The notes under the pieces: generated by a model | What the model was told of the DNA's origin: nothing | Databases searched by the model: none | The model's input: the letters and a program-made list of their open reading frames with translations, nothing else | Source: a virus | Taxonomy: Duplodnaviria; Caudoviricetes | IMG/VR virus record: IMGVR_UViG_3300033475_000115 | Location: 1-30,525 of that record | Strand: one strand, 5' to 3' | Length of the DNA: 30,525 bases | Shown here: positions 3,582 to 30,525 of the stretch, piece after piece | Layout: each line of letters begins with the position of its first letter | Position numbering within the stretch: position 1 is the first letter of the stretch | Position numbers and translations under genes: made by a program

Positions 3582-3593
3582 ACGTTTGTGTTT

Positions 3594-4784
3594 TTAAGCG
3601 TCGGGATCGGTGGCGCCCACGGCCCAGAGGGGATTGGCCGCTCCGGTCGTGTAGGTGCGCGAGGCCGTCCAGGTGAGCTCTCCGGCGCGGTCTTCCTTGG
3701 CATCGAAGTTGACCGGCGGATTCTTGAGGAAGGCACCGTAGAGCGACACGTAGAGGCCGGTGCCGGAGACCTTGAGCACATCGGTGCCGGAGAGGCTGCG
3801 ACCACGGCCGGCGCCGGAACCCTGGAGGCCGAGCTTGGCGAAGATGTCGTCGGCGCCGATGTTGAGCGGGCGCGCGGTGAGCGTGGCGGCGAGCTGGGTG
3901 ATGCGCCGCGAGCAGATGCCGCCGGTGTCATCCATCACCGGATCGGTAGTGAGCGGGAAGCTGCACTTGATGCCTGCCTTGGTGCTCATGGCCGCCCAAG
4001 GTGCGGTCGATCCCCAGGAGAAGTCGTAGGCCTGGGTGATGATGTCGGCGGGATTGAAGCTCGTGTCGGTCACGGCGCCGGTGGTCTTGGTGTAGAGCGC
4101 GGCGGCATCGGTGGGAGCAGTGGAGAACTTGCGGAAGCACTCGAAGGTGACATCGCCGATCACCGTCTGGATCGCGCTGGCCATGAGGTCGGGCATAGCG
4201 GGCAGAGTGGAGTTGTGGAAGGTGTAGATATCGCCATCGAAGGACTGCACGACGAGCGGCTCCTGCTCGATGATACGATGGGTGCCGGTGCCGGCATCGG
4301 TGATATCGACCGTGTTGGTGCCGGCGGCGGCATCGGCAGCGGTGGGATGCAGGGTGAACGTATCGGCCGAGAGCTTCTTGAGGTAGTAGAGCGTGGCGGC
4401 GGAAGTGCCGGCAGGCAGCACGCCGAAGGAGGCGAGACGCACCGGGGCACCATCGCGGAAGCCGTGGGCGGTGAGCGTCACGATATCGGTGGCGGTATCG
4501 ATGGAGCCGAGGGTCTTGGCGTGGTGGATCAACGAGCCGAGCGCGGCGAGCGCGTAGGGCCAGAGGATCGAGAGCGCGTCGAGACGGCCCACGGGGGTGA
4601 ACTTCACCTCCATGGAGAGGTTGCTCTCGCGCTCCTGGATCACGCCATCACGGGCGCTCTCGACGTTGAAGGTTTCGATCTTCTGGGTGACAGTGACATT
4701 CCCCTTGGAATAAAAGGTCTTGCCGCGCGTCATGATGAGGGCGGGACCGGCGATGGTGAGGGCGGGATTCAGTGGCGTAGGCAT
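3594..4784 (-). CDS. Probable major tail (tube) protein with inserted small beta domain
   Basis: Position after head-tail joining genes; Thr/Ala/Gly-rich. Insert HGFRDGAPV...LPAGTSAATLYYL...TFTLH resembles FCCH-like domains of phage structural proteins. Confidence 0.6.
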   Translation of the reverse strand: MPTPLNPALTIAGPALIMTRGKTFYSKGNVTVTQKIETFNVESARDGVIQERESNLSMEVKFTPVGRLDALSILWPYALAALGSLIHHAKTLGSIDTATDIVTLTAHGFRDGAPVRLASFGVLPAGTSAATLYYLKKLSADTFTLHPTAADAAAGTNTVDITDAGTGTHRIIEQEPLVVQSFDGDIYTFHNSTLPAMPDLMASAIQTVIGDVTFECFRKFSTAPTDAAALYTKTTGAVTDTSFNPADIITQAYDFSWGSTAPWAAMSTKAGIKCSFPLTTDPVMDDTGGICSRRITQLAATLTARPLNIGADDIFAKLGLQGSGAGRGRSLSGTDVLKVSGTGLYVSLYGAFLKNPPVNFDAKEDRAGELTWTASRTYTTGAANPLWAVGATDPDA

Positions 4785-16420: not shown

Positions 16421-17014
16421 TTATTTCCCGAAATCCCCAGCCTCAATCGATACTTCGGATTTTGGCGGATTAAGCGTGTATGCCGGCACGTGCTTGGCGC
16501 CTGCTCCCACCGAGGTGTAGCTGTAGCTGCCATCGGTCCAAAGGATGAGGTCAACATCATCATCATCGGCCACGGTCGTGAGACCACGCACGAAGGCGAC
16601 GGCATCTACCATGACCGGCGTTTCGGTAGGCACGTTGACCGTTTCATAAGTCGGACCATCCAAGCCGGTGGCGTATTTGATTTTCTTAGTGGGCACATTG
16701 ACGACCACGATTTTTGATACGGAACAAAGCGCACCATCATCAAGGGATTGGATGACATGCACGCTGAGACGATTGGCGGTGCGCCGGTGTTTTTCGCATT
16801 GGGCAAGAAAGTCTTTGTCGTCGTCGCTGAGCTTGAGCCGCGAGATCTGCAAGACGCGACCGCCCGCCAAACGGATTGATACGGTGCCTGCAGTGAAGCC
16901 GACGAGCGTGGCCTGCACCTCTCTGCCGGTGGTATCTGTCCAAGTGCGAGCATGAGCAGGTTGGACGGCGAACAGAAATGCCAGCAAGAGAATGAAGAGC
17001 AGGGTTGTTTTCAT
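16421..17014 (-). CDS. Exported SHD1-domain protein (moron)
   Basis: Signal peptide ending AHA, then RTWTDTTGREVQATLV...LSDDDKDFL (SLA1 homology domain 1 pattern). Confidence 0.75.
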   Translation of the reverse strand: MKTTLLFILLLAFLFAVQPAHARTWTDTTGREVQATLVGFTAGTVSIRLAGGRVLQISRLKLSDDDKDFLAQCEKHRRTANRLSVHVIQSLDDGALCSVSKIVVVNVPTKKIKYATGLDGPTYETVNVPTETPVMVDAVAFVRGLTTVADDDDVDLILWTDGSYSYTSVGAGAKHVPAYTLNPPKSEVSIEAGDFGK

Positions 17015-17021
17015 GGCGGAA

Positions 17022-17342
17022 TTATTCACTCAAACGAGCCTTCTCCCAAGCGGCGGCGCGGGCTTCTTGATCCAGACGCTCGACGCGCTCCCTCTCGGTT
17101 TCGTAGGCGGGCATCTTTTTGTTTAACCAGACACCGGGCAGAGGTCTTTTTGCGGCGGGCGCGGGTTTGGGAATTTCAGGCAGCAGCAAAACTAGAATCC
17201 AGCCGATAGGCCCGATAAAAAACCCGAGCATAAAACCGTGAATCTCTCGATTCTTGGATTTGCCCAGCCAGCGACCAAGGAGACCGCCGAATAGGGCAAA
17301 GAATAAAACTGCGACGATGTATTCAGGAGTGAAGATATCCAT
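17022..17342 (-). CDS. Small inner-membrane protein (moron)
   Basis: Two TM segments, GFMLGFFIGPIGWILVLLLP; lower GC than the backbone. Confidence 0.7.
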   Translation of the reverse strand: MDIFTPEYIVAVLFFALFGGLLGRWLGKSKNREIHGFMLGFFIGPIGWILVLLLPEIPKPAPAAKRPLPGVWLNKKMPAYETERERVERLDQEARAAAWEKARLSE

Positions 17343-17429
17343 ATTAGGTCCTTTCAGGCTTAGAGTTAGAGAGTGCGCCGATTATTAAACACAGGCGCAT
17401 CGTTGTGCTTGGATTTCGGATAAAAAAAA

Positions 17430-17657
17430 GTGTCTGTCTTTCACGTCGTGGCTAAACCTCCAGCCAGCAAACGGAAAAGACAGGATGCCGAGGGGCAATT
17501 TGTCTTCTGCTTCGCGGCCGATCTGCTCGCGGAAAATGCGGCGCTGCGGGCGGAGAATGCCATTTTGCGGGAGAAGCTCATAAAAAAAGGCGAGATGCTT
17601 ATGATGCTTGGGCAGCGGCTGCGCCACCTTGGGACTGCGGATTTTTTAGCGCCTTGA
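17430..17657 (+). CDS. Possible small coiled-coil protein convergent with the repressor gene
   Basis: LLAENAALRAENAILREKL heptads; fills an otherwise empty gap; overlaps the repressor 3' end. Confidence 0.35.
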   Translation: MSVFHVVAKPPASKRKRQDAEGQFVFCFAADLLAENAALRAENAILREKLIKKGEMLMMLGQRLRHLGTADFLAP

Positions 17658-18108
17658 TGTTGACCTCGGCCTGGCGACCCAGCTCATCGAGATCGGCCTC
17701 GATCTCGGTCATGTTCACATGCCAGCGAGCAGGCACGGAGACATGATTACGCAGCTGCTCCAGCACCCACGCTTGGCGGACAATATTAGAACCAGCAGCA
17801 ATCAAGAGAAGCCGCATGTGCTCATCGATATCACGCTTGATGTTTTTACCAAGTAAACCAGCGGGTTTAGGTGAACTTCCGTAAGGCGCCGAATCTTCGG
17901 CAACGAGGGGTATCCCTTTGAGTGACGTTTCTTTTGTGCGCTCGATCTCAATGAGACGTGCGTCTATTTCATCGGAAATCGGGTAGTGGCCATTCTCTAC
18001 GCGATTCACGTAAGGACGTGCATAGCCTAATAGTTTGGCAAATTCAGATTGATCGAGGCCGAGTCTGCGCCTGAGCAGCATCATGGATTCTGCGGTGTGC
18101 TTAGGCAT
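17599..18108 (-). CDS. XRE-family HTH prophage repressor
   Basis: LRRRLGLDQSEFAKLLGYARPYVNRVENG; VAED..PY linker; divergent from the early operon; no S24 peptidase domain visible. Confidence 0.85.
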   Translation of the reverse strand: MPKHTAESMMLLRRRLGLDQSEFAKLLGYARPYVNRVENGHYPISDEIDARLIEIERTKETSLKGIPLVAEDSAPYGSSPKPAGLLGKNIKRDIDEHMRLLLIAAGSNIVRQAWVLEQLRNHVSVPARWHVNMTEIEADLDELGRQAEVNIKALKNPQSQGGAAAAQAS

Positions 18109-18187
18109 ATAACTTTTTTTCTAAAAACATAACATTTGTGCTTGAACAAGTGTGACGTAACACATGTGATGCCGTCACAAAGCCACC
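18109..18187. promoter_or_regulatory. Divergent lysis/lysogeny control region with candidate early promoter and operators
   Basis: AT-rich. TTGAAC(18142)-17 bp-TGTGAT(18165). Palindromes TGTG-N6-CACA (18151-18164) and TGTGA-N5-TCACA (18165-18179). Confidence 0.65.
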
Positions 18188-18364
18188 ATGACCCCTCGAA
18201 AGCAAGCCCCGATTACCCTCAAGAAGAGGATGCTCGATAAAAAAGTAAACGTAACGGATCTAGCCCGCCGTGTAGGCCATGCGCGCACCACCGTCAGCCG
18301 AGCAATCAATCACGGCGCCAATGCCGGTGTCCTTAAAAAAGTGAAGGAGGTTCTCGATGTCTGA
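18188..18364 (+). CDS. Ner/Cro-like HTH protein (58 aa, absent from ORF track)
   Basis: MTPRKQAPITLKKRMLDKKVNVTDLARRVGHARTTVSRAINHG...; first gene of the early operon. Confidence 0.8.
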   Translation: MTPRKQAPITLKKRMLDKKVNVTDLARRVGHARTTVSRAINHGANAGVLKKVKEVLDV

Positions 18365-18575
18365 CCCCGCACTCATCGCTGCTCTGGAAGTAGCGTATCG
18401 GCACTACGGTGACACGACCACAACCGAAATCGAGCGCGATGCGATTTTGGCCGCCATGTCGGCCCACATGAATCCCCGTGAGGCTCAGATCGCCGCGGCC
18501 TCTCTTCACCACCGCTTGGAATCAAGAATTCACCAGCTCCAACTCACCGACCTACTCACTCGCGCCGCTTCATGA
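18357..18575 (+). CDS. Hypothetical early protein
   Basis: Overlaps both neighbours in operon fashion. Confidence 0.6.
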   Translation: MSDPALIAALEVAYRHYGDTTTTEIERDAILAAMSAHMNPREAQIAAASLHHRLESRIHQLQLTDLLTRAAS

Positions 18576-18979
18576 GCACGCCCAAGAAACATGTCTCCAA
18601 AGCCGAGATGGAAGCCTGGCAGGCCTCCTTGGGTTTCGTGTTTCCCCGCAAGCCGATGCTCCGGCCCGACGAGGTGGCGACCCCGTTTGGCGTGGATCTG
18701 CGCACGGTCGCCCGTTTCTTCGATGTCGAGCAGACCCGCGAGGGCGAGATACGCCCGTGGCTCATGGGGCTGGAGCTCAATGCCGGCCGCAAGGGCGAGC
18801 GCCTCTCGCGCCGCATCCCCCGCGACAACGCGATCCTGCTGTGGGCCCACTCCGCCAACTACACGCCGGCCGATGTGCTCAACCTGCTCTTCGACGTGCT
18901 CGACAAGCGCACCGACACCGAGCTGCTCGCGATCACCCAGCGCGCCAACGAGCTGATCCGCCGCCGCGCCACCGGCTGA
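18572..18979 (+). CDS. HTH (excisionase-like) DNA-binding protein
   Basis: MLRPDEVATPFGVDLRTVARF ... RRIPR pattern. Confidence 0.6.
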   Translation: MSTPKKHVSKAEMEAWQASLGFVFPRKPMLRPDEVATPFGVDLRTVARFFDVEQTREGEIRPWLMGLELNAGRKGERLSRRIPRDNAILLWAHSANYTPADVLNLLFDVLDKRTDTELLAITQRANELIRRRATG

Positions 18980-19009
18980 AATTTTCACGACCGACCAACA
19001 CACACGACC

Positions 19010-19426
19010 ATGAAAGACAAATCCTGCACCGTTCTCGACCGCGCCGAGTTCGCGCGGCGTATCCGCAAGCACAAGAACCTCTACATCGCGATCCGTGATT
19101 ATGACGGCCGCTCCATCACCGGGTTTTTCATCCCCGCCAATCTCGCCGTGACCCAACTGCTCGCCGGGAGCTTCGACGAGCTCACCTGGAGCGATGATGA
19201 AGCCGGCCCGGATGTGGCCGGCGATCGCGCCCCTGCCCACATCGTTCTCTCCCGCCAGATCGAGATGCTCACGGGAAAGCTCTCATCCTACGAACATAGC
19301 GCGGCGAACGCCTCCACGGAAGCGAACCGTGAATGGAGCCGCAGCCAGGCAGAGAAATACCGCCGCGAGATCAACCTCGCCCGCACCAAGCTCGCTGCCC
19401 ACCGCGCCCAACCCGTCGCCGCCTGA
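19010..19426 (+). CDS. Hypothetical early protein
   Basis: cacacacgaccATG leader; GC3-biased codons. Confidence 0.65.
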   Translation: MKDKSCTVLDRAEFARRIRKHKNLYIAIRDYDGRSITGFFIPANLAVTQLLAGSFDELTWSDDEAGPDVAGDRAPAHIVLSRQIEMLTGKLSSYEHSAANASTEANREWSRSQAEKYRREINLARTKLAAHRAQPVAA

Positions 19427-19429
19427 GCC

Positions 19430-19678
19430 ATGTTTCCCGACACTCCAACGCAAGAGTCCGGCTGCCTCGTGAGGCGGCTGCGCGATCCCCACGCGAAGCC
19501 GGGCGATCTGCCCGTGTGGTGGTGCTCGCTTTGGTATGGGCACGGGGTGCTCGCCATCTACTCCCGCGCTTTGGCCGCCGCCGAGGAGCCCACGATCAAC
19601 GACATCATGCGAGCCCACCAAGCGGCTCCCGACACCTTTGAAAAGCAATATCCCTACGTCTCCAGCACCAACCTTTAA
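19430..19678 (+). CDS. Hypothetical early protein
   Basis: Tightly packed in the operon. Confidence 0.55.
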   Translation: MFPDTPTQESGCLVRRLRDPHAKPGDLPVWWCSLWYGHGVLAIYSRALAAAEEPTINDIMRAHQAAPDTFEKQYPYVSSTNL

Positions 19679-19680
19679 CC

Positions 19681-20436
19681 ATGCCTAAAGCCTCTCTCCA
19701 AGTCATGCCCTCCAGCCCTTTTGCGGGGCTTCAAATCTCGGCCACCCCCTTCGGCGTGGGGGATAAAAAGGTGGGCGAAAAACTCACCGCGCTCTACCGC
19801 GATGCGCAGGACGCCGAGCTGGCGATCCTCCGCTTTGGCGCGGCCTTCTGGGCGGTCGAGCAGGTAGTTCTGGCCACATGTGGCCAGAACTCCGGTCCCG
19901 GTGCCTACGGCTTCGCTACATGGCTTGCCGACCACGCGCCCGAGATCAGCCGCACCACTGCCCGCCGCTACCGCGACATCGCGGAGGCGACGGCGGAGCG
20001 GTTCAAGATCGCCGACCCGGTGCGGGTGTTTTCCCTGCCGGTGGACCAGCTCGACAAGCAGGACCAGGCGAAGCGGGCCAAGGTGTGCGAGTTCATGGCC
20101 GAAAAATCCATGCGCGGCATCCAGCTGGAGCTGGGCCTCGTCTCCCGCATGGGTGCCGCCGCCAAGGGGGGCGACCTGGGCGGGCGCCGCAAGGCCGCCG
20201 CCGACATGAGCCCCGCCGAGATCGCCCAGGCGCAGGAGGCCACGCGCGCGGCCAACGAGAAGGAGTGGACCGGCTGGCTCGACATGCTCGAAGCCACCGG
20301 TCTGCGGATGCCGCAGTGGAGCTGCCTGCCGCTGCACAAGCTGGAGCGCATGTCGTCGCTCCTGCTCGACGTGCGCCGGCTCGTTGACCAGGCGGTCGCC
20401 ACGGAGCGCCGCGCAGTGAAGGGAGGCCGCGCATGA
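19681..20436 (+). CDS. DUF3102-like protein upstream of the transposase
   Basis: FATWLADHAPEISRTTARRY motif; ATGA overlap with the transposase. Confidence 0.55.
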   Translation: MPKASLQVMPSSPFAGLQISATPFGVGDKKVGEKLTALYRDAQDAELAILRFGAAFWAVEQVVLATCGQNSGPGAYGFATWLADHAPEISRTTARRYRDIAEATAERFKIADPVRVFSLPVDQLDKQDQAKRAKVCEFMAEKSMRGIQLELGLVSRMGAAAKGGDLGGRRKAAADMSPAEIAQAQEATRAANEKEWTGWLDMLEATGLRMPQWSCLPLHKLERMSSLLLDVRRLVDQAVATERRAVKGGRA

Positions 20437-22490
20437 GCCTGCTTCTCGAAAACAACCGCCGCCTGTTCTTCGTGCCCGCCGCCGATCGCGAGCTCTTCGA
20501 CACGCAGATCCCGAAGGCCGCCCGCGCCCGTTGCGAGCTGCTGCTGTGTTGCATGGAGCGCATCCATCTCGCCCGCAACCGCAAGGCCGAGTGCTCCGAA
20601 ATTGCGCGCCGTCTCACCCACCTGCGCGGCTGCTCGGCCCCGCACCTGAAACGGTTTTACCTGGCGTTCCGCGCCTCGGGCAACGACTGGCGCAAGCTCG
20701 TCGCCGCCTACCACCTGCCCGCCGAGGAGCACCAGCGCGGGAATCTCTCGCCGGAGTTCGTGCGCTACTGGCAGGCGCTCGCCGAGGAAAACCAGCGCGC
20801 GGCGCGGCCCGCGTATCGCGAGCTGCTGCGCCGCTGGCGCCGGGGCGACGAGATCGCCGGCGTGGGCACGTGGCAGCGGTGGTGGCAGGCCAAGTTCAAG
20901 GGCCGCCCGCTGCCCGCCGAGTGCCCCGAGGACCTGCCCACCGGGTGGTCGTATGAAAACCTGCTGGCCAACATGCCCGCGAAGGTGGAGACGACCATCG
21001 TGCGCGACGGCCTGTTTGCCGCGCATGCCGGGCTCTCGCAGATCCTGCGCGACCGCAACCAACTGCGCCCGCACGAGCTGCTCACGTTTGACGACGCGCA
21101 GCTCGACTTCCGCGTGATGGCCGATGGCGGGGTGCGCAAGCTGCGCGGCGTGTTCTGCCTCGACGTGGGCGACGCCTATCTGCTGAGCCACTACACCAAG
21201 CCCGCCCTGGCCAAGGAGGATGGCGGCGAGGAGGGCCTCATGCGCGCCGAGGTGCGGCAGATGCTTTTCTACATCCTGCGCGACTACGGCATCCCGCGCG
21301 ACTACCCGCTCAATCTCCTGGTCGAGAGCGGCGCGGCCTCCATTTCCAAGGAGGACGCCGCCTGGCTGCACGCGATGAGCGGCGGCCGGATCATCGTGCA
21401 CCGCACGAGCGTGACGGAGCGCACGGCGTTCCTCGGCGCGTATACCGAGCGTTACGGCCAGCCCTGGCACAAGGGCTGGATCGAGGCGTTCTTCAACCTG
21501 CTGCACAACGAGTGCGCGGGGATCGCAGGCCAGTTCGGCCGCAACCAGCTCGAAGGGAAGACGGGCGACTTCGAGAAGCGCAAGGAGGCCGCGCTCGCCC
21601 TCTACAAGGCCGCCGAGTGCCTGCCCGCCTTCTACCGCGACCAGCTCGCCACGCCGTTCCCCTCGCTGGGGCGGGCCAACGATTTTCTCATCGATGTGAT
21701 CAACCGCATCAACCATCGGCAGGACCACCGCCTGCAGGGCTTTGAGCGCGTGTCGCAGTGGCGGCTCACCGATGGCGACCGATGGCGCGACTGGGCCGAG
21801 CTGCGCGAACTGCCCGCCGCGGCGCATGACGCGGTGCAGACCCGCGAGGTAATGGAGTCGCCCGCTGCGCGTCACGCCCGCCGCTGGGCCGAGCTGGTGC
21901 GCGACCCGCTCTCCGAGCTGTCGCTCATCCCGCTGCTCAACGCCAAGCGCACCGTCACCCTGGCCAAGCCTTTCGAGGTGAAGCTCCAGATCGACGGCAA
22001 GGGCCACGTATTCAGAAAAATCGACAAGGCGCTGGCCAAGGAAGGGCTCACGTTCACCGCGCACTTCGACGAGGACCGCGCGGACTGCATCCATCTCTTC
22101 GACGAGGCGGGCCGCCATGTGGCGACGCTGCCCCGTGTGGACGGCTTCAATCCGCTCGACCGCGACGCCTACAAGACCGCGATCAAGGCCACCGCCGCCG
22201 GCAACCGCGTGCTGCTGGACAACATCCAGCAACGCACCGCCGGGCGCGCCGGCGAGCGCCTCGTCGCCGAGGAGCGCAACCGCGAGGTGCTGGAGACGGC
22301 CGCCGCCGACATCGAGGCGGGCCGGATGCAGCTCAACGCCGCCGAACGCGCCTCGCTCTCCATGCAGGCCGGCGCGGCCGAGGTGCGCACCACCCGCGCC
22401 GCGTCCAAGACCCGCTCCTCCAAGAAGCAGGCGGCGATGACCAGCAAGTTGGCCGCCCTCGCCCAAAGCGCCCGCGACAACGGCGCTTAA
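20433..22490 (+). CDS. Mu A-like DDE transposase
   Basis: 685 aa; LLTFDD (first acidic residue), LLVESG (second), KGWIEAFFN (third); followed by an ATPase gene. Confidence 0.82.
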   Translation: MSLLLENNRRLFFVPAADRELFDTQIPKAARARCELLLCCMERIHLARNRKAECSEIARRLTHLRGCSAPHLKRFYLAFRASGNDWRKLVAAYHLPAEEHQRGNLSPEFVRYWQALAEENQRAARPAYRELLRRWRRGDEIAGVGTWQRWWQAKFKGRPLPAECPEDLPTGWSYENLLANMPAKVETTIVRDGLFAAHAGLSQILRDRNQLRPHELLTFDDAQLDFRVMADGGVRKLRGVFCLDVGDAYLLSHYTKPALAKEDGGEEGLMRAEVRQMLFYILRDYGIPRDYPLNLLVESGAASISKEDAAWLHAMSGGRIIVHRTSVTERTAFLGAYTERYGQPWHKGWIEAFFNLLHNECAGIAGQFGRNQLEGKTGDFEKRKEAALALYKAAECLPAFYRDQLATPFPSLGRANDFLIDVINRINHRQDHRLQGFERVSQWRLTDGDRWRDWAELRELPAAAHDAVQTREVMESPAARHARRWAELVRDPLSELSLIPLLNAKRTVTLAKPFEVKLQIDGKGHVFRKIDKALAKEGLTFTAHFDEDRADCIHLFDEAGRHVATLPRVDGFNPLDRDAYKTAIKATAAGNRVLLDNIQQRTAGRAGERLVAEERNREVLETAAADIEAGRMQLNAAERASLSMQAGAAEVRTTRAASKTRSSKKQAAMTSKLAALAQSARDNGA

Positions 22491-22535
22491 GATCCTCTCC
22501 AGACCCTTTTCAGGAACCCAAACACACACACGACC

Positions 22536-23633
22536 ATGGCCACCATCATACCGACCGAATCCCAACTGCGCGACTGGATCACCAGCGGCTGCGAAAACCC
22601 GAAAAAGAACATCTACCCCATCGAGGCGATCGACGCCACGATGGCGATCCACAGCTATCTCTACCGCCGGTGCGAGGGAAACATCAACGTGCTCGTCGAG
22701 CACGCCCGCCTGAAGGGCTTCAACTACGACTACGGCTTTTTCTACCAGCTGCTCACGGCGCGGTATTTCCGGCCCGACTCGAAGACGGGCAAGCCGCAGG
22801 GCTCGTGGAAGAATGTGGTCGAGCTGTGGAAGCAGCTCCAGATCTTCGATATTTTCGCCAAGGCGCTCTCCAAAATCCGCTTCGTCGATACGAGCGTCTA
22901 CGAGCGCATAAACGACTATGTGCAGTTGAAAAGCACGCCGTTCAACGCCTGCCGCTTCGGCGCGGTCGTGGGCCACACCGGCATGATGAAGACGGAGAGT
23001 TTTCTTGAGATCGGCCGGCGCGGAAAGGCGGGGGCGATCTTCCGCATCGAGTCGCCCGCCCAGCCGAAGCTGAACCAGTTTATCCACAAGCTGGCCCACG
23101 CCCTCGGCGCGCAGAAGACGTGGACGATCGCGCGCAAGATGGCGCACATCGTGGAGAACGTCGCCGACCGCGTGCTCATCATCGATAACGTGCAGCGGTG
23201 TTTTAATCTCCGCAGCGGCTCCAACCAGCCGATCTTCGACTATCTCCAGGAGTTGCAGGAAGACACCGGCTGCACGATCATCATCTGCTGGACGCCGGTG
23301 GACAAGGAGTTCGAGGGAGAGTTTACCGGCGGCGCCTACTTTGAACAGTTCGTGGGCCGCATCGGCGGCGAACGTGAAATCCTCCGCCTCGAAGACTACC
23401 CTCTGGAGGAGGACATCGAGAAGATCGCCCTGAGCTTCCACCTGCCTGAGGGCGACGTGGAAAAACTCATGCCGCGCCTGCGCCTGCTCGTGCGGGAGAA
23501 GGGCCGCATACGCGCGCTCTTCAACGCGCTCCAGCAGGGCGCCCGCCTCGCCACGGCCGACGAGAAGCCCTTCCGCGCCCACCACGTCCTGAGCTACCTC
23601 GCGAGCTACGATGAAATGAAAGCCGCCATCTAA
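22536..23633 (+). CDS. Mu B-like AAA+ transposition ATPase
   Basis: Walker A-like GHTGMMKT, Walker B-like VLIIDN, EQFVGRIG, GRIRAL. Confidence 0.82.
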   Translation: MATIIPTESQLRDWITSGCENPKKNIYPIEAIDATMAIHSYLYRRCEGNINVLVEHARLKGFNYDYGFFYQLLTARYFRPDSKTGKPQGSWKNVVELWKQLQIFDIFAKALSKIRFVDTSVYERINDYVQLKSTPFNACRFGAVVGHTGMMKTESFLEIGRRGKAGAIFRIESPAQPKLNQFIHKLAHALGAQKTWTIARKMAHIVENVADRVLIIDNVQRCFNLRSGSNQPIFDYLQELQEDTGCTIIICWTPVDKEFEGEFTGGAYFEQFVGRIGGEREILRLEDYPLEEDIEKIALSFHLPEGDVEKLMPRLRLLVREKGRIRALFNALQQGARLATADEKPFRAHHVLSYLASYDEMKAAI

Positions 23634-23641
23634 TCACGACC

Positions 23642-23905
23642 ATGGCCACCAAAACCCAATACGACTGCCAGACGCGCCCCAATGGTCGGGGAGGGTGGGA
23701 GATCGCCGAGATCGACGCGCCCGCCGGCATGGGCATCGGCAACTACTCCACGGAGGCCGATGCGTTCGCAATGGCCGCCTACAACTTCGATCGCAAACGC
23801 ATCAAACGCGGCGACGAGCCGGCGGCCGCACCCAAGCCCGTGATCGCAAAACAACCCTCCCTTGGCAGCCGCCTGGTGCGCCGCGTCAAGGCCCTCACGA
23901 AATGA
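23642..23905 (+). CDS. Hypothetical early protein
   Basis: cacgaccATG leader; operon packing. Confidence 0.6.
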   Translation: MATKTQYDCQTRPNGRGGWEIAEIDAPAGMGIGNYSTEADAFAMAAYNFDRKRIKRGDEPAAAPKPVIAKQPSLGSRLVRRVKALTK

Positions 23906-24153
23906 ATACCAGCACGCTCACTGCGTTGATCACCCACCACGAGAAGCAGGCGCGCTATTACCGCAATCTCGCCGCCGCTGATCGCGAATGCCGCCGGCAC
24001 GATGCCGCCGAGGCACGCGACGAACTCGCAGTCACGCACGAGCACTGGGTTTCCTAGCTGCGCACCCTGGGCGCGGCCTTCGCCCAGCTTGTCGAGGTGC
24101 GCAAGCGCCCGCTCTTCGCACGCCCCCTCAACCTCGCCCACGCCAGCGGCTGA
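23902..24153 (+). pseudogene. Small ORF interrupted by an in-frame TAG at 24055-24057
   Basis: The frame continues with normal codon bias for 31 codons to TGA 24153. Confidence 0.5.
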
Positions 24154-24190
24154 TCCTGCGTCAGCCTACTCGCTACTCACACCTTCTCCC

Positions 24191-24469
24191 ATGAGATACA
24201 TCGTCGCCCGCAACCTGTCCGGCATTGAGCATCCGTTTCTCGCGGTGGCTCCGATCACACACAAGCAGCTCAAAGCCCAGGCCGAAACCGAAGGCTTTAA
24301 AGAGATCTTAAGCGCGGGCTTCGTCCACTTCGGCCCCGCGCTCGGCGTGACAACACATTATCGGAGCGAGGGATTGGGTCTCAAGCCCCGCGCCGAGGAT
24401 GCGCGCCTGATCGAAATTTTCTACAAGGCGACCCTCAACCTAATCCCTGAATTTCAACCGAAAGCATAA
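24191..24469 (+). CDS. Phage hypothetical protein
   Basis: MRYIV...ILSAGFV...SEGLGLKPRAED pattern. Confidence 0.65.
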   Translation: MRYIVARNLSGIEHPFLAVAPITHKQLKAQAETEGFKEILSAGFVHFGPALGVTTHYRSEGLGLKPRAEDARLIEIFYKATLNLIPEFQPKA

Positions 24470-24481
24470 CCACCCACGATC

Positions 24482-24748
24482 ATGCCACGCACTTACATCA
24501 CACCCGAGCAGATCGCCACCGCCCGTGCCCGCGTGCTCAAGGGTGATAGCCAGTCGGCCATCGCCCGCGATCTCGGTGTCTCGCGTGACGCGATGGGTTA
24601 CCACCTGCGCGGCGGCAAGGCTTACTACAGTGGGAAGCGGCCGTGGGGAACATCCCTCCGTGCCGCCAAGCTCGCTCTGGCCGCCGGCAATCATGCCGAG
24701 GCTGCATATCACTTCACGGCCACCGCCAAAATTCTGATCAATCTTTAA
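24482..24748 (+). CDS. HTH DNA-binding protein
   Basis: GDSQSAIARDLGVSRDAMGYHL. Confidence 0.75.
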   Translation: MPRTYITPEQIATARARVLKGDSQSAIARDLGVSRDAMGYHLRGGKAYYSGKRPWGTSLRAAKLALAAGNHAEAAYHFTATAKILINL

Positions 24749-24761
24749 CCCACCCACGACC

Positions 24762-25091
24762 ATGCCCGCGAAACCAAAAAACAACACCATGCAGCTGCGC
24801 TCGCAGCTCTCCCGCGTTCTGGAGGCCATCTCCAGAATCGAATACCCCAGCGATATCGAGCGCGATTTCCGTCTCGGGGTGCTTAAGCGTATTCCGCTGG
24901 CCGCCGATCTGCCCGTCGTCTCCGACGAGGATCAGCAGACGCGCGCCTATGACATCCGCGACCTCACCTCGGCCTGCGCCATCGCCCACCCGACGCCCGA
25001 GGAGCGTGCCGCGCGCGCCATGATCATCGGCAAGCTCTCGGCGAGTTTCAAGTTGGCCGAACTCCGCAAAACCACCCTCGCAGCCCGATGA
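24762..25091 (+). CDS. Hypothetical early protein
   Basis: cccacgaccATG leader; ATGA overlap downstream. Confidence 0.6.
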   Translation: MPAKPKNNTMQLRSQLSRVLEAISRIEYPSDIERDFRLGVLKRIPLAADLPVVSDEDQQTRAYDIRDLTSACAIAHPTPEERAARAMIIGKLSASFKLAELRKTTLAAR

Positions 25092-25360
25092 GCATCACCG
25101 GAGCCAGACTAGTCATTCACCTTGCCGCGCTCGATGCCGCCGGTCTCGTCGCCGAATTGGAGACCGTCGCGCGCCAAATGAAGGCGCATGAATTGGTGGT
25201 CGAGATCACGCACAAGGGTTGTTTCCGCATCGTTAAGGAAGGCAACACCGCCCAGGGCATCTTCGCCAACCGGCATGCGATGATCGGCCTCCTGGTCTGC
25301 CTCGCCGCCGTGGATCCCGCCGCCGGCCCCAACGCCTTCTGGAAGGAAGTGCTCTCCTGA
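25088..25360 (+). CDS. Hypothetical early protein
   Basis: Operon packing. Confidence 0.55.
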   Translation: MSITGARLVIHLAALDAAGLVAELETVARQMKAHELVVEITHKGCFRIVKEGNTAQGIFANRHAMIGLLVCLAAVDPAAGPNAFWKEVLS

Positions 25361-25362
25361 AA

Positions 25363-25653
25363 ATGAGCGCCGCCCGCCAAAAACACCTCGGCCCGCTGGA
25401 TTTCAGCGGAGGCCCCAACGCCCCGAAGCCCGGCTCCGGCATGAAGGCGCTGGAGGCGGCGGCGATCTCCAAGCCGGCCGGATCGTTTTACTATCCGCTG
25501 TTTGAACACATGAGCCGTGAACATGGCCTGATTTTAACCGACTCCGAACTCGCCGAAATCGTGCGCGTGTCGGAAGCGTTAAGCCGGAACGACGCAGGTG
25601 GGCCATGCGGCCCGCAGGCCGCGCCCGTTGGCACCCCTCGCGAACACCCCTGA
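25363..25653 (+). CDS. Hypothetical protein whose 3' end runs into the distal attC
   Basis: In-frame AAC at 25588; stop lies inside the attC loop. Confidence 0.6.
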   Translation: MSAARQKHLGPLDFSGGPNAPKPGSGMKALEAAAISKPAGSFYYPLFEHMSREHGLILTDSELAEIVRVSEALSRNDAGGPCGPQAAPVGTPREHP

Positions 25654-25688
25654 GCAGCATACGCATTGGCACTAGCGCATGGTTCTCC
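25584..25688 (-). repeat. attC site of cassette 5 (distal), 105 bp
   Basis: Minus strand: ggagAAC-catgc-gct(a)gtgc-ca(a)tgcg ... cgcatg-gcccacc-tgcgtc-GTTccgg. Confidence 0.7.
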
Positions 25689-25699
25689 TCCGTAAATTT

Positions 25700-25894
25700 A
25701 TGTCCTCGAAAACTATCAAACTCACCGAAGTCCGAAGAGAGAAAATCGACTTCCGCAAGATCGCCGAAGAATCCGGCGCACGTCTCGGGAACCTGTGCCA
25801 CTCGCCCGCTTTCGGCTGGGGCGTCCGCACGCAGGACGGATACCCGGCTGACTTCTGCTCGATCACGCCTCCGCCGTTCCAACAAATAAGATGA
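25700..25894 (+). CDS. Cassette 5 ORF, hypothetical (alternative start 25679)
   Basis: MSSKTIKLTEVRREKIDF...; stop overlaps the methylase ATG. Confidence 0.55.
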   Translation: MSSKTIKLTEVRREKIDFRKIAEESGARLGNLCHSPAFGWGVRTQDGYPADFCSITPPPFQQIR

Positions 25895-26000
25895 CCAACG
25901 ACCCTGAGATGACGGCCACGTCGGAGCCCGTCGCGCTCGAATGCCCTGCACCGATCGCGGCAGGACAGACAGGGTCGTTGGGTCTGGCGCCTGGTTCAGC
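25877..26000 (-). repeat. attC site of cassette 4, 124 bp
   Basis: Minus strand: gctgAAC-caggc-gcc(a)gacc-(c)aacgaccctg ... cagggtcgtt-ggtcatc-ttattt-GTTggaa; 10-bp perfect inner stem. Confidence 0.85.
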
Positions 26001-26469
26001 GTCCGTTCACTTTTCGAGCGCCTCTGACGACTGGCCAACCCCTCAAGACTTCTTCGACAAGTGCAATGCGGAGTTCGGGCCGTTCGACCTCGACGTGGCC
26101 GCCGCGCCGGACAACGCCAAGTGCGCGAAATACTTCACGTCGTGGGATGACGGCCTCGCCCGTGAATGGTGCGGGCGCGTGTGGATGAACCCGCCGTATG
26201 GTCGCACAATCGGCGACTGGATGCGGAAAGCCTACGAATCCGCGCAAGCCGGCGCGCTCGTGGTGTGCCTCGTGCCAGCGCGGACAGACACGGCGTGGTG
26301 GCACGACTACGCGATCAAAGGACATATCCGATTCATTCGCGGGCGGCTAAAATTTGGGGGGCACGAAAACTCAGCGCCGTTCCCCTCGGCCCTCGTGGTC
26401 TTCTCTCCGCTGAACGCGGAGATCAGACACGCGAACCCGAATACCAATTCCGCCCCGAGCGGACAATGA
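25891..26469 (+). CDS. Cassette 4 ORF: phage DNA N6-adenine methyltransferase (phage Dam-like family)
   Basis: DDWPTPQDFF, FDLDVAA, DGLAREW, VWMNPPYG, LVPARTDTAWW, IRGRLKF, SAPFPS. Confidence 0.92.
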   Translation: MTNDPEMTATSEPVALECPAPIAAGQTGSLGLAPGSASVHFSSASDDWPTPQDFFDKCNAEFGPFDLDVAAAPDNAKCAKYFTSWDDGLAREWCGRVWMNPPYGRTIGDWMRKAYESAQAGALVVCLVPARTDTAWWHDYAIKGHIRFIRGRLKFGGHENSAPFPSALVVFSPLNAEIRHANPNTNSAPSGQ

Positions 26470-26521
26470 CCATGAAAAAACCTGAACCTGTGAGCGTTGT
26501 TTCTGTGGCGACTGGTTCTCT
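26409..26521 (-). repeat. attC site of cassette 3, 113 bp (weaker inner stem)
   Basis: Minus strand: agagAAC-cagtc-gcc(a)caga-aacaacgc ... gcgtg-tctgatc-tccgc-GTTcagc. Confidence 0.75.
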
Positions 26522-26753
26522 GGCTCGTGAGCCGCTGACCGAAAAACAAGCCGACAACCTGCTGGCTCTGCTCGGAAACGCCAAGAGGCTGGAAAAGCTC
26601 AGCGCGGCGGAACTCGTGAGCGAATGTCTCGAGACTCCCGCCGCTGACTACCAAGTCGTGACAGAGCTCATGAACCGCGTCCTGCCGGGGTGGGCTGACA
26701 TACTCGGGGATGACGAGCCAGAGAACGCTTCGGATCAGAGACCCCGCCCATGA
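26466..26753 (+). CDS. Cassette 3 ORF, hypothetical (95 aa)
   Basis: ATGA overlaps at both ends; start lies in its own attC loop. Confidence 0.7.
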   Translation: MTMKKPEPVSVVSVATGSLAREPLTEKQADNLLALLGNAKRLEKLSAAELVSECLETPAADYQVVTELMNRVLPGWADILGDDEPENASDQRPRP

Positions 26754-26811
26754 AGACTCTCAATTGTAAGCAAGACGCGAAGGCGGGGTTCTCTGCATCC
26801 GATTGTTCGCC
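26720..26811 (-). repeat. attC site of cassette 2, 92 bp (clearest example)
   Basis: Minus strand: ggcgAAC-aatcg-gat(g)caga-ga(a)ccccgcc ... ggcggggtc-tctgatc-cgaagc-GTTctct; perfect stem apart from two unpaired bases. Confidence 0.92.
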
Positions 26812-27097
26812 CACGTTCGTCTGGACGCTCATCGCTGGCTACGAGCCGATGGAGGAATGCCATACCGATGGCGGCATGAAAGTCGGCTGGGTCAACCCGG
26901 ATGCGCTCACCAAGATGACGCCTCGGAACAAATGGGGAACGCGCGCGGACTGGCCCGGCGAGTGGGAGGGCGTGCCGCATGTCAACGACGCAGAAGGCCA
27001 GCCGCTCGATTGGGAATTGTCGCGCGTCTGTGAAAGCTACGAAGCCGCGAAGTCGCACGTTCAGCGCAGTTGGGCGAACAACTCGGGTCAGAAATGA
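26750..27097 (+). CDS. Cassette 2 ORF, hypothetical (115 aa, Trp-rich)
   Basis: Start in its own attC loop; stop in the next attC. Confidence 0.7.
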   Translation: MKTLNCKQDAKAGFSASDCSPTFVWTLIAGYEPMEECHTDGGMKVGWVNPDALTKMTPRNKWGTRADWPGEWEGVPHVNDAEGQPLDWELSRVCESYEAAKSHVQRSWANNSGQK

Positions 27098-27164
27098 CCC
27101 TCTACTAATCAACCGAATCACCAGCGGGCACAGCAGGGTCATTTTCTGTAGTCGCTGGTTAGCC
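27073..27164 (-). repeat. attC site of cassette 1, 92 bp
   Basis: Minus strand: ggctAAC-cagcg-act(a)caga-a(a)atgaccct ... agggtcatt-tctgacc-cgagtt-GTTcgcc. Confidence 0.9.
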
Positions 27165-27181
27165 TCCGTAAAACGAATACT

Positions 27182-27493
27182 ATGGACCTAGAAACACGAT
27201 ACATCGTAGTGAAAATCAAGGACGCGAACCGCTTCCTTTCGACTGCCGAGCGAGACATGCTAGAGCGGCTCCATGCCAAGGCCGCTCTGGGTAGAATAGA
27301 CGCAGGCCAAAAGATGCTAGACTGCATCGTGGTAGAGAAAGACTGGCCGGAATACGCGCCGACACTCGCCGCTATCTCAGCCCGCGTGGACGCCCTCGGG
27401 AATAAGCCACACCATGCATGTGACGAATCGTGCATCTATCACTGCACGGAAGCCGGACAGCATCCGCCTGATTGTTTGGCTAACAAGCAGTAG
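27182..27493 (+). CDS. Cassette 1 ORF, phage-type hypothetical (103 aa)
   Basis: RYIVVKIKD...CIVVEKDWPEY pattern; ends ANKQ* across the attI crossover. Confidence 0.75.
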   Translation: MDLETRYIVVKIKDANRFLSTAERDMLERLHAKAALGRIDAGQKMLDCIVVEKDWPEYAPTLAAISARVDALGNKPHHACDESCIYHCTEAGQHPPDCLANKQ

Positions 27494-27517
27494 GCCCACG
27501 GAGGTTCTCTATCACTT
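27478..27517 (-). other. Putative attI site
   Basis: Minus-strand GTTagcc core (27484-27478) with a 6-bp spacer and L-like box, no attC hairpin; 33 bp upstream of the intI ATG. Confidence 0.7.
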
Positions 27518-28456
27518 ATGCCCTGGCTCGCTGACAAAATCTCGGATGCTTGTGCGGTGAAGAACTTTTCACCGCGCACGGTGGAATGCTACACGTCGTG
27601 GGCTCGGGTATTTTTTCGGTTCTGCAAGCAGCGTGACCCCCGCTCCTGGACGGCTGATGACGTTAAGGGATTCCTCACTTGGATGGCTACGACGAGTCCT
27701 TCCTATTCGGCCAAATCCCAAAAGCAGGCTAAGAACGCCATCGTCTTCGTCACCCGTCACGCGCTGGGAGTGGACATTGGCGATTTCTCTTCGTTCCAGC
27801 GGGCGCCGGAGTTCCGCCGACCTCCCACGGTGTTATCTCGCACTGAGGTGCTCGCACTCCTCGAAAAAATCCCTAACAAATGGCGGCTTCCGATTGAGCT
27901 GCTTTATCGGTGCGGCCTTCGGCTGAATGAAATGTGCCGGCTGCGGGTGCAGGACTTGGATATCTCTTGCAGGCGGGTGATCGTCATTGATGGAAAGGGC
28001 AAAAAACACCGTGAGGTGCCGTTGCCAGAATGCCTGGTCGAAATGGCTGAGCGCCGTATCCGTTGGCGCAAGGGCCTGCACGAGGCCGATCTTGCCCAGG
28101 ACGCGGGGATCGCTCCGATGCCTGATCGCCTCGGGGTCAAGCTGCCCAGCGCCTGTCGTGAGATCGGCTGGCAGTTCGTTTTCCCCTCCACCTGCATCCG
28201 TGATGGGGCGCGGTGGTGGACGAGCGATACCCAGATTCAGGAGATGGTGAAGAAAGCAGCCAAGGAGGCCGGCATCCTCAAGCGCGTCACGCCCCACACT
28301 CTGCGCCACTGCTACGCCACCCACCTGCTGGAGGCTGGCGCCAATATCCGCGACGTCCAGGAGCTGCTCGGTCACGCCGACGTCTCGACGACGATGATCT
28401 ATACCCATGTGCGCGCCCAATCGACGCGGGGATTTGTTAATTTACTGGCCTCATGA
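27518..28456 (+). CDS. intI: Integron integrase (tyrosine recombinase)
   Basis: SPRTVECY..W N-terminal domain, PTVLSRTEV, GLRLNE, DGKGKK, IntI-specific insert LHEADL..DAG...MPDRLGVKLPSACREIGWQFVFPS, HTLRHCYATHLLE, LLGH, TTMIYTHV. Confidence 0.92.
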   Translation: MPWLADKISDACAVKNFSPRTVECYTSWARVFFRFCKQRDPRSWTADDVKGFLTWMATTSPSYSAKSQKQAKNAIVFVTRHALGVDIGDFSSFQRAPEFRRPPTVLSRTEVLALLEKIPNKWRLPIELLYRCGLRLNEMCRLRVQDLDISCRRVIVIDGKGKKHREVPLPECLVEMAERRIRWRKGLHEADLAQDAGIAPMPDRLGVKLPSACREIGWQFVFPSTCIRDGARWWTSDTQIQEMVKKAAKEAGILKRVTPHTLRHCYATHLLEAGANIRDVQELLGHADVSTTMIYTHVRAQSTRGFVNLLAS

Positions 28457-29046
28457 CGCCCGCCGCCCGCAGTCACTATTTCATCGAGCTCTGGCCAGCC
28501 GCCGCGCTCGCCAACGAGTGGAACGTCAAGGACGACGCCCGGCGGCGCGCCGTCACCCTCGCTTGCATGGCGGCCATCAAGGGCCCCGAGACCGATTCCG
28601 TCTCCAAGATGGGTGAGGACGAGATCACGGCGCTGTTTACCTACCTCCGCCACCTCGCAGATCCCGCGAGCCTGGACAAATCCGCCCGCTGGGTGAGCTG
28701 CCAAGAGGACTACAAGACCTTCGCGCGCGCGAAGCAGGCCGATTTCCACGAGCGCAGCCTCTACGGGAAGGGCAAAAACAAGCTCGATAAGAACCGTTTC
28801 AAGGGCGAGACGAGCGCCGCCGGCGGCCCGCTCGACACCCTCGACGCCGAGGAGGTGCGCAAACGCCACCTCACGATGGCCAGCCGCAACCAGGCGCGCC
28901 TGCGGAAAGAGAAAAAAGACCGGCGTGCGGCTACCAAGGAGCCGGCGATCGACTTCGACGCCGCGCCGGCCGGCACCGCGATGCCTGCACCGGCTGCTCC
29001 CATGCCCGCGCACCGCAAAACCGCCGATATCGAGGTGCCGTTCTGA
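28453..29046 (+). CDS. Hypothetical protein (possibly Mu gp16/GemA-like)
   Basis: ATGA overlap with intI; backbone-like codon usage; position late in the early operon. Family call is weak. Confidence 0.55.
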   Translation: MTPAARSHYFIELWPAAALANEWNVKDDARRRAVTLACMAAIKGPETDSVSKMGEDEITALFTYLRHLADPASLDKSARWVSCQEDYKTFARAKQADFHERSLYGKGKNKLDKNRFKGETSAAGGPLDTLDAEEVRKRHLTMASRNQARLRKEKKDRRAATKEPAIDFDAAPAGTAMPAPAAPMPAHRKTADIEVPF

Positions 29047-29327
29047 TGGAATCCGTGGGCAAACTTCTCTCCAGTGTCGGGATCGCCGCGACGGGCGGGC
29101 ACGGGGTGAGTTTGCCGCCGGAGGTGCAGCGTTTCAAAGTGACGCTCGCCCGCTTTGCCTTTTACGAAGTCGAGGTGCTTGCCGAGACCGCGACGGCCGC
29201 GATGGCGATGGCGGAGCAAAGCCCGCCGGTGAAGCCGAAGTTGAAATTCTACACCGGGCACTCGGCGACTTATGCGGAGGTGTTTCAACCGTGGGATGGG
29301 AAGTGGGCGAAGGTGCCGCGCGCATGA
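29046..29327 (+). CDS. Hypothetical protein
   Basis: TGATG and ATGA coupling to neighbours. Confidence 0.55.
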   Translation: MESVGKLLSSVGIAATGGHGVSLPPEVQRFKVTLARFAFYEVEVLAETATAAMAMAEQSPPVKPKLKFYTGHSATYAEVFQPWDGKWAKVPRA

Positions 29328-29656
29328 AATCCGACCCCTTCACTGACGAGTTGGGCTTGAAAATGGCCGCCCCAGAGGTGAGCGAGTCGGAGATTCAGTC
29401 GTTGGCGACGTGGTTGGAGGGTAAGGAATGGTGCACCGCCCGGCAGATCGAGGAGGCTCTGGGTCTCGATGAGCGAAAGGTGCGTGCGATCGCAGAGCAC
29501 AGTGACGGCCTCATCCTGAGCGGGCCCGGTTGCCCTGGCTATCGGCTCTTCGATGGGGCGACCCGGATCGGTGACGCCGATCGGGCGGCGCATCCATCGT
29601 TTCGCAAGGTGACCTATGGATGTACTTGGCTCTTTTCTCGATTCGCGTCGCGGTAG
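29324..29656 (+). CDS. Winged-helix DNA-binding protein
   Basis: WCTARQIEEALGLDERKVRAIA...LILSG...GYRL. Confidence 0.65.
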   Translation: MKSDPFTDELGLKMAAPEVSESEIQSLATWLEGKEWCTARQIEEALGLDERKVRAIAEHSDGLILSGPGCPGYRLFDGATRIGDADRAAHPSFRKVTYGCTWLFSRFASR

Positions 29657-30224
29657 CGACAAAGGCCGGCCGGCGTCCGAAGACTGGATGCTCACCGTGC
29701 TGGCCCCCGAGGAGCGGTTGATCAAGTTCGACGCCTGGACCAAGCACCAGCTGGCTACCCGTCTCAAATGGCCGGCCGATGAACGCCGGCGGGTGAAGCT
29801 GCAGGGCCAATGCCGCGCCCGGCTGGAGAGGATCACCCTCGATCTGTGGCGCCGTGGTTGGCTTTTGGACGGCAAACGACTCTCCGCTCATATCATTGCC
29901 GCGCTCGATGACATCGCGGCCGCACAAGGGCAGGGAAGGGTGAAGGAGTTCTGGCCGTTCTTCTGCCGCGTCGTGGACACCTACGTCGGCATCAACTCCG
30001 AGACGATCCAAGCAGAGGCGCGGTCGCTGGCCGGCGCCCAACCTGCCGGCGACGTGATGAAGCGGGCGCTCGGTTCAATCCTGAAGCCCGTCCCCACTAT
30101 TCCCGACCTAGTCGCCGAGCGCCGGTCCGAGATCAACCAAGAGCGCGAGGAAAAGCTGCGCTCCAGACTTTCTAAAGCCCGACTTAAGGAATCTTCAAAC
30201 GACGGTCAGAAAACCCTCTTTTAA
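29616..30224 (+). CDS. Hypothetical protein, last gene of the early arm
   Basis: 202-aa ORF with plausible composition; start uncertain. Confidence 0.6.
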   Translation: MDVLGSFLDSRRGSDKGRPASEDWMLTVLAPEERLIKFDAWTKHQLATRLKWPADERRRVKLQGQCRARLERITLDLWRRGWLLDGKRLSAHIIAALDDIAAAQGQGRVKEFWPFFCRVVDTYVGINSETIQAEARSLAGAQPAGDVMKRALGSILKPVPTIPDLVAERRSEINQEREEKLRSRLSKARLKESSNDGQKTLF

Positions 30225-30229
30225 AATCC

Positions 30230-30396
30230 GCGAGGCTTAATCCTCCGCCAATCTGCCGGCTTTTTCCGGCTTTCTTGTCCGAGGAGGAGCAAACCGAAAT
30301 CCAAGCCGTCCCGGCACCCGCGCGGCGGCTTTTCTCCTCTGTAGTTCAGGGTTTCTCAGGGTAGATAAGGCTTTTTCAGGCGAGGCTTAATCCTCC
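30230..30396 (+). repeat. 17-bp direct repeat pair, candidate transposase-binding sites
   Basis: gcgaggcttaatcctcc at 30230-30246 and 30380-30396; internal GAGG-N6-CCTC dyad. Confidence 0.75.
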
Positions 30397-30525
30397 CTCC
30401 CTCTCTCAATGAACGGATCGGTTTGGCATCAGCCAAATGTGAATAAGTTTTTGGCTGAAATCTGTTATTTGAGACGGAGTTGTCTTGACTGAAGTGGGTT
30501 AAAATGGGTTGAAATGGGGCGTTCT

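Follow-up and report, generated by a model that had tools for sequence, protein, structure and literature searches.

A probable integron with inverted gene cassettes in the early operon of a Mu-like prophage

In teaching, the polarity of integrons is treated as fixed: the choice of attC strand exists to place the gene of each cassette downstream of the cassette promoter, Pc. Toxin-antitoxin cassettes are among those that lie in the opposite direction within bacterial arrays, and in the inverted, or reverse-integrase, integrons of Treponema the integrase gene intI is flipped and the cassettes are canonical. Here we describe a stretch of virus DNA of 30,525 nt (Duplodnaviria; Caudoviricetes; positions 1 to 30,525 of IMG/VR record IMGVR_UViG_3300033475_000115, called the window in its whole length) in which five cassettes, an attI site and an integrase gene quite probably make up a complete integron of inverted genes inside the early operon of a Mu-like prophage, likely read by the early transcript and with the folded sense strand predicted to be the one recombined. 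Like the Treponema integrons, it has an intI co-directional with its cassette genes; unlike them, it has canonical intI/attI/attC geometry, with the genes flipped and intI last.

To judge from the parts of Bouvier 2009 (PMC2727003) drawn on here, the window shares with canonical integrons, both the mobile ones of class 1 and the sedentary ones of chromosomes, the integrase insertion, an attI at the 5' end of intI, attC sites with R and L boxes and with unpaired bases placed on the R''-L'' arm, array polarity away from intI and crossover at R'. It differs in that its genes lie on the attC bottom strand, with the attC leading the gene, that its intI follows the cassette genes and reads in their direction, that no Pc was found, that the platform sits inside a phage early operon, and that open reading frames (ORFs) start and stop inside attC sites. 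In phages, the relevant part of Qi 2023 (PMC9892861) reports 3 complete integrons and 17 clusters of attC sites lacking integron integrases (CALINs) in 10,705 phage genomes, with typical cassette structure. Those phages (TJE1, Shewanella phage M16-3, and Vibrio and P1 phages) resemble the window in carrying integron parts and DNA methyltransferase cargo; they differ in that TJE1 and M16-3 are canonical, in that the complete integrons are captured host or class 1 elements, and in that no systematic gene inversion is reported in that part of the paper. The gene of the Xanthomonas cassette sRNA-Xcc1/symE is likewise antisense to the attC top strand, according to sections of a preprint (bioRxiv 10.1101/2025.06.18.660453), but such opposite-direction bacterial cassettes are isolated and not under Pc, whereas in the window the whole array is inverted and translationally packed in an operon. 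A literature search with most subscription journals outside its range found no array with systematically inverted genes. Apart from gene polarity and Pc, the window system works like an integron in the features tested, which were all present: IntI, an attI half-site, attC sites of one polarity away from intI, and cassette units.

The attC sites were located with a detector of our own build, in which AAC, 5 nt and an 8-nt L'' with an extra base are matched to a 7-nt L', 5/6 nt and GTT; spacers of 5 and of 5/6 nt are the usual values. The chance level was taken from ten simulated 30.5-kb sequences, which gave a maximum score of 9 and 30 hits at 7. The first-pass annotation had held that the unpaired bases and spacers orient every attC with its top strand on minus. 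All five sites do score higher that way round than with the top strand on plus: attC A (27073..27164) by 12 to 2, attC B (26720..26811) by 15 to 5, attC C (26409..26521) by 5 to 3, attC D (25877..26000) by 12 to 1 and the distal attC E (25584..25688) by 7 to 1. The spacers of the weak site C are 5/5 and give no orientation, and for this site that part of the claim does not stand. Sites A, B and D lie above every simulated hit; C and E, which is also weak, are within chance on score alone and have other backing. For C, this is the motif, exact R'/R'' matches on both sides and a metagenome contig match that ends at its AAC; for E, it is its resemblance (84% identity over 96 nt) to an attC on contig C5 of the same assembly genome (G000), which carries a second integron of phage type and where an attC with 79% identity over 118 nt to attC D is also found. 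The best-folding site is B, with a folding z of -3.7 on plus and -4.3 on minus and an R+L pairing probability of 0.98 on plus.

The putative attI site (27478..27517, minus strand) has the R box GTTAGCC on minus, with the crossover at 27483/27484, then 33 nt to the intI ATG, and forms no attC hairpin. Its half-site GGCTAAC (27478-27484) is fully complementary to R'' of attC A, and R'/R'' complementarity is exact for cassettes 1-4. A match of R' to R'' alone gives no array orientation; the half-site and the ends of shared cassettes do. The half-site stands next to intI, and the opposite end of the array is a full attC; by this observation, which is independent of the detector scores, the array runs away from intI in the canonical geometry, as had been claimed. 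The flank of attI, CAGTAGGCCC, is common to the window and a relative at locus L002. This Mu-like relative (L002 4823-8345) carries six inverted cassettes, and its array is placed differently relative to a shared operon gene.

The genes of the array all read along plus. Cassette 1 (405 bp, 27079..27483) consists of attC A followed by an ORF (27182-27493) for a 103-aa product of unknown function that matches phrog_7810 (E 1.5e-15), with its stop inside attI. In cassette 2 (353 bp, 26726..27078) the ORF (26750-27097, 115 aa) starts inside attC B, and in cassette 3 (311 bp, 26415..26725) the ORF (26466-26753, 95 aa) starts inside attC C. Cassette 4 (532 bp, 25883..26414) joins attC D to a gene for a Dam-type N6-adenine methyltransferase (25891-26469; PF05869, E 1.6e-29; phrog_111), whose start and the preceding stop (ATGA) are contained in the L' box of attC D. 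Cassette 5 (293 bp, 25590..25882) has attC E and then an ORF that ends at 25894, with a start at 25679 or 25700. The first-pass claim that all five ORFs lie on plus, against the attC top strand, is borne out by the coding model (5/5) and by the PF05869 and PHROG matches on plus; the five minus-strand ORFs of the window were also submitted to Pfam, and no family matched. We regard the inversion of the genes as real almost beyond doubt. Three of the ORF junctions overlap as ATGA, and where ORFs read across an AAC they are in frame at 5/6 crossovers. In both cassettes with a possible start outside the attC, the leader TCCGTAAA stands right after R'' (25689-25699 and 27165-27181).

Shared cassettes show which attC travels with a gene. 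The near-identical phages L058/L062 and L059 have common cassettes with different neighbours. For two cassettes compared between L058 and L059, both arms of the upstream attC show 97-100% identity, as against 23-30% for the 30 bases that precede it and 27-70% for the next site; in a third cassette the upstream context is kept and the next site is different. In other viral pairs, the shared sequence runs out at the downstream site's AAC. In the window itself, the match to a contig of metagenome run X2 begins at 25881, at the AAC of attC D, after 959 unrelated letters, and extends to 26431, while the match to a contig of run X1 ends at 26415, at the AAC of attC C; these contigs come from two studies, have small word shares and are likely from phages of other organisms. 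Because shared cassettes keep the upstream attC and stop at the next AAC, we infer that the cassette unit is an attC followed by its gene, with the crossover at R', which agrees with the earlier proposal that each attC lies at the 5' end of its gene. According to the sections of Bouvier 2009 (PMC2727003) used here, R' is targeted if the bottom strand recombines and R'' if the top strand does. Since a crossover at R' ties recombination to the bottom strand, which is plus in the window, it is very probably the mRNA-sense strand that would recombine, as the first reading of the sequence had predicted.

The layout was followed in 80 of 185 viral loci with IntI relatives, chosen by IntI similarity. 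A chain with at least one strong attC stands upstream of intI in 39/80 of them; 19 of the other 41 have fewer than 600 bases upstream. Every strong attC at most 4 kb upstream of a viral intI has its top strand on minus (88/88). The strands of cassette genes were called with a local coding model, which replaced both longest-ORF calls, noisy in G+C-rich DNA, and a locus-wide model, which missed short cassettes. With three weak plus-top hits skipped, the 102 viral intervals in 39 loci comprise 97 inverted, 0 canonical, 3 without a call and 2 unclear. A check against PHROG used the longest ORF per strand in 92/102 intervals, leaving out 9 near-duplicates and 1 interval without ORFs on both strands, and gave matches for 31/92 plus ORFs and 0/92 minus ORFs. 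The 31 matches are to 7 DNA methyltransferases, 3 Mom-like, 2 PAPS reductase-like, 2 DHH, 1 Lar-like, 1 exonuclease, 1 radical SAM, 1 membrane protein and 13 unknown families.

The viral loci also resemble the window in their finer arrangement. An attI-like half-site obeying the R'/R'' rule was found near intI in 29/43 viral loci, usually 45-95 nt upstream of the first start codon, and the rule is exact in 32/38 adjacent strong attC pairs. The 51 viral ORF ends divide into 21 that stop before the R box, 15 that overlap it and 15 that read into the next attC, the last with the AAC in frame in 14/15. Shine-Dalgarno-like words precede 42/85 inverted starts compared with 7/48 canonical ones, a hint only since the hosts differ. 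The nearest called gene upstream of the array is on plus at 27/28 loci and that downstream of intI at 28/33, which places the integron within a phage operon of its own direction. Because the gene after intI is a phage integrase in 18/27 scanned viral loci (L001-L079), the integron often closes an early operon beside the phage's own recombinase. In virus Rctr41k (L117, KX853513.1, 8415-8813), inverted attC sites lie about 2.7 kb downstream of an intI-like gene.

Bacterial arrays are arranged the other way. In the host's phylum, 28/35 intervals are canonical and 0 inverted (5 loci with arrays among 50 examined), and further bacterial arrays have 70/98 canonical and 7 inverted intervals (21/80 loci), for a total of 98 canonical and 7 inverted among 133. 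Two of the 7 look by eye like inserted transposases, 3 are short weak ORFs and 2 are phage-like cassettes in L148, a Halothiobacillus chromosomal array (2961-3778) in which these two inverted cassettes, one with a PHROG match, stand among canonical ones with a single attC polarity. L148 shows that the phage and bacterial pools can cross, and these counts show a layout restricted to phage-type cassettes.

The host's own integron, on contigs C17, C23, C25 and C27, has attC sites that align with those of the phage array as one type, and no similarity between the window array and the host arrays was found beyond the attC regions. Its 19 intervals comprise 11 canonical, 0 inverted, 5 without a call and 3 unclear. 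The first-pass annotation had noted neither this canonical control nor the spread of the layout among phages. In the second phage-type integron (G000:C5 3820-5615; L083), intI lies on plus and the attC sites have their top strands on minus. The first of its cassettes is inverted, and no strand call was obtained for the second. Its IntI is distant (31% identity), and its attC sites, 79-84% like D and E, carry different genes. The host chromosomal intI (G000:C23 2000-3495) is split by a stop and a frame change in the assembly; the two phage-type intI genes may be the sole intact ones in the genome, or the split may be an assembly error. A lone E-like attC at G000:C31 794-897 has neighbour genes on its bottom strand, with no intI in the first 3 kb. 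In control sequences, the detector called TJE1 (3/3 sites), aadA2 and blaIMP-1 of a class 1 plasmid, and Shewanella phage M16-3 (4/4) canonical, in line with the direction of their annotated genes, with one tied, spurious hit; its call for TJE1 agrees with the bottom strands listed and tested in the part of Qi 2023 (PMC9892861) consulted.

The window integrase (27518..28456, plus, 312 aa) reads in the same direction as the cassette ORFs and matches TIGR02249 with 295.4 bits, above the cut-off of 265. Its top PDB hit is IntI4 of entry 2a3v (E 5.8e-56), its catalytic residues R135-K160-H260-R263-H286-Y295 are invariant in the alignment, and its integron-specific insertion aligns with those of IntI1 and IntI4. 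In the integrase tree it is distant from the host's chromosomal IntI. One clade unites 24 inverted-type IntIs with 99% support in the Shimodaira-Hasegawa-like approximate likelihood-ratio test (SH-aLRT), and the window and C5 enzymes fall outside it. The labels canonical and inverted change 6 times on the tree, suggesting several origins of the inverted type; a constraint grouping all 27 tested inverted-type IntIs as one clade gave p 0.106 in the approximately unbiased (AU) test. By these sequence-based trees convergence is not shown and a single origin is not rejected. L148 was labelled inverted in the tree that gives the 24-member clade and canonical in the AU-test tree, from which 9 rows were thinned. 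A nesting of IntI1 among phage integrases was apparent in one tree and disappeared once chromosomal betaproteobacterial IntIs were added. No close relative of the window IntI was found at E 1e-70 in 400 other genomes of the order, nor one of the C5 IntI among viral contigs.

The window covers the right-hand part of a Mu-like prophage that lies on contig C7 of the assembly genome, with head and tail genes on minus. An HTH (helix-turn-helix) repressor-like gene (17599..18108, minus; HTH_3 E 1.2e-7; phrog_8) is divergent from a continuous early operon (18188..30224, plus), which comprises 25 ORFs: a Cro-like HTH protein, a transposase-like ORF (20433-22490), a MuB-like ATPase (22536-23633; TniB/AAA_22), small ORFs, the integron and four more ORFs. 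The transposase-like label combines a sub-cut-off rve_3 match with gene position. Over the 24 junctions the gaps range from -41 to 84 nt, the largest being 84 nt. The Mu-like features thus listed are phrog_296, the head genes, TniB/AAA_22, the weak rve_3 match and a CA end followed by variable host DNA. The right end (30200..30408) ends in CA at 30408 and has two different host joints: in the window, 30408-30525 continues into G000:C33 62658-62559, and in the assembly the end runs into another place on C7 (G000:C7 14741-14767). The prophage thus has at least two insertion joints, which we read as a sign that it has transposed. Its left end was searched for and was not located.

This setting suggests an expression logic that differs from that of Pc. 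The array is probably expressed from the phage early promoter in place of Pc, as the first-pass annotation had proposed, and the early transcript likely runs through the cassettes and on into intI. On the simplest reading, intI and attI came to lie in the early operon with the direction of its genes, and the array would grow toward the operon promoter; because intI lies in operon direction with attI at its 5' end, only inverted genes would be expressed, and Pc and the integrase promoter Pint would not be needed. In the lysogen both intI and the cassettes would be kept repressed, to be turned on by induction, and shuffling would fall in the period of phage growth. If insertion takes place at attI as in known integrons, new cassettes would enter last among the cassette genes of the transcript, as that annotation had also held. 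The chemistry would be ordinary integron chemistry as set out in the sections of Bouvier 2009 (PMC2727003) used above. Host-type cassettes in a phage array, and phage-type ones in a host array, would be oriented antisense to the promoter that drives the array, and for this reason the two pools would be functionally apart despite the shared attC type. We are evenly divided over a broader proposal, that temperate phages run a mirror-image integron system in which an early-operon integrase shuffles attC-first cassettes, rich in genes for DNA modification and anti-restriction, as the phage grows. The flip would put the recombining strand on the sense strand and silence crossing cassettes, and the cassettes of phage counter-defence and of host defence would form two pools with common recombination sites but separate expression. 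An attractive idea is that the inversion may be linked to the lagging-strand template (passages of PMC5371416). No sigma-70-like match was found near attI on either strand in a low-power scan, and no LexA box occurs in the window or in any of 37 inverted viral loci (0/37), but only 3/19 canonical loci had one.

Several observations weigh against a working inverted integron in the window. The same scan located no plus-strand promoter in 17000-30525, its 3 sites in 13.5 kb comparing with 2.6 expected, at low power. Cassette 5 fails the R'/R'' rule. The predicted recombinogenic fold has a probability of 0.00-0.03 for attC C and E and is partial, 0.18-0.31, for A and D; energy folding predicts no advantage of plus over minus. 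The pairs L009/L065 and L010/L060 share only the R''-side arm of the upstream attC, which shows that attC bodies can also be exchanged. The viral set contains near-duplicates besides having been selected by IntI similarity, and the published phage CALIN of TJE1 is canonical, so that inversion is not universal in phages. In the window IntI a loop is shortened and changed, TCIRDGARWW where other integrases read DPRT-G-RRHH (RWW for RHH), and the protein is on a long branch (0.95-1.08); in L002, its closest relative, intI is without its first 200 codons. The diverged loop and long branch, the poor folds of C and E, the failed R'/R'' match and the truncated intI of L002, together with the fact that most ORFs start or stop within attC sites, would all fit an inverted integron that was active in the past and has since become fixed, with cassettes that serve as ordinary early genes and an integrase that has ceased to work. 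The window array may be such a relic even if the inverted class is active. Nevertheless, the IntI is full-length, above the family cut-off and has all six catalytic positions, four R'/R'' matches are exact, the Dam cassette has the same ends where it is found elsewhere, and the two insertion joints imply that the prophage has transposed. We give the relic something like one chance in four, and lean slightly toward the window IntI being still active.

The other alternatives concern how the inversion is to be read. Phage integrases might recombine what is the top strand in bacteria, so that the cassettes would be ordinary units of gene then attC with only the unpaired bases mirrored. The loop changed in the window IntI is where what we take to be the base-contacting histidines lie, and ORFs often stop in the adjoining R box as canonical genes do (15/51); yet the shared cassettes carry the upstream and not the downstream attC, which largely refutes this idea, and the half-site is at the intI end with the full attC at the far end, the RRHH loop is kept in most viral IntIs with inverted arrays, and the canonical chromosomal integron L148 holds inverted cassettes in register. 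We consider it the least credible of the alternatives. Hardly better placed is a captured piece of host array whose genes were inverted singly because each brings a promoter of its own, as some toxin-antitoxin cassettes in bacterial arrays do. In its favour, the attC type is common to phage and host, isolated cassettes of opposite direction have precedents (sRNA-Xcc1/symE in Xanthomonas, in the preprint sections cited above, bioRxiv 10.1101/2025.06.18.660453), and phages with captured host arrays are described in the part of Qi 2023 (PMC9892861) used here; against this, the ORFs overlap by ATGA and leave no room for promoters, the IntI is far from the host's chromosomal IntI, the array has 60% G+C compared with 48% in the host arrays, no similarity to the host arrays was found outside the attC regions, and inverted intervals number 97/102 in phages and 7/133 in bacteria. 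It is also improbable, if somewhat less so, that the host integrase chiefly mobilises the cassettes and the phage intI is incidental: the attC type is shared and IntI1 recombines phage attC sites (same part of Qi 2023, PMC9892861), but in the assembly the host chromosomal intI is split by a stop and a frame change where both phage-type intI frames are open, and attI adjoins intI in 29/43 viral loci.

With an inverted integron as the preferred reading, the window adds a full-length integrase and an attI in a prophage that appears to transpose, alongside a host array that shares its attC type and is canonical. A class with all genes flipped would mean that one chemistry can support a different logic of expression, and that phages make use of integrons as well as carrying them. 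Anti-phage systems are stored in bacterial integrons, according to abstracts; the 31/92 cassette ORFs in phage families, including methyltransferases and Mom-, PAPS reductase- and Lar-like proteins, suggest a counter-defence pool. Canonical and inverted arrays of one attC type in one genome make cross-talk, strand choice and cassette origin testable, and surveys that pair each attC with its upstream gene would mis-assign sites in inverted arrays.

Two further observations concern neighbouring genes and relatives of the integrase. An early ORF in the window (23902-24154) has an in-frame TAG after codon 51 and is then open for 32 codons, as in a broken gene or one that is read through. Many chromosomal IntIs of the host's phylum (L092-L115, L132-L141) sit within open frames 410-560 aa long, in which the IntI match is preceded by 100-250 residues, an extension that the phage-type IntIs do not have.

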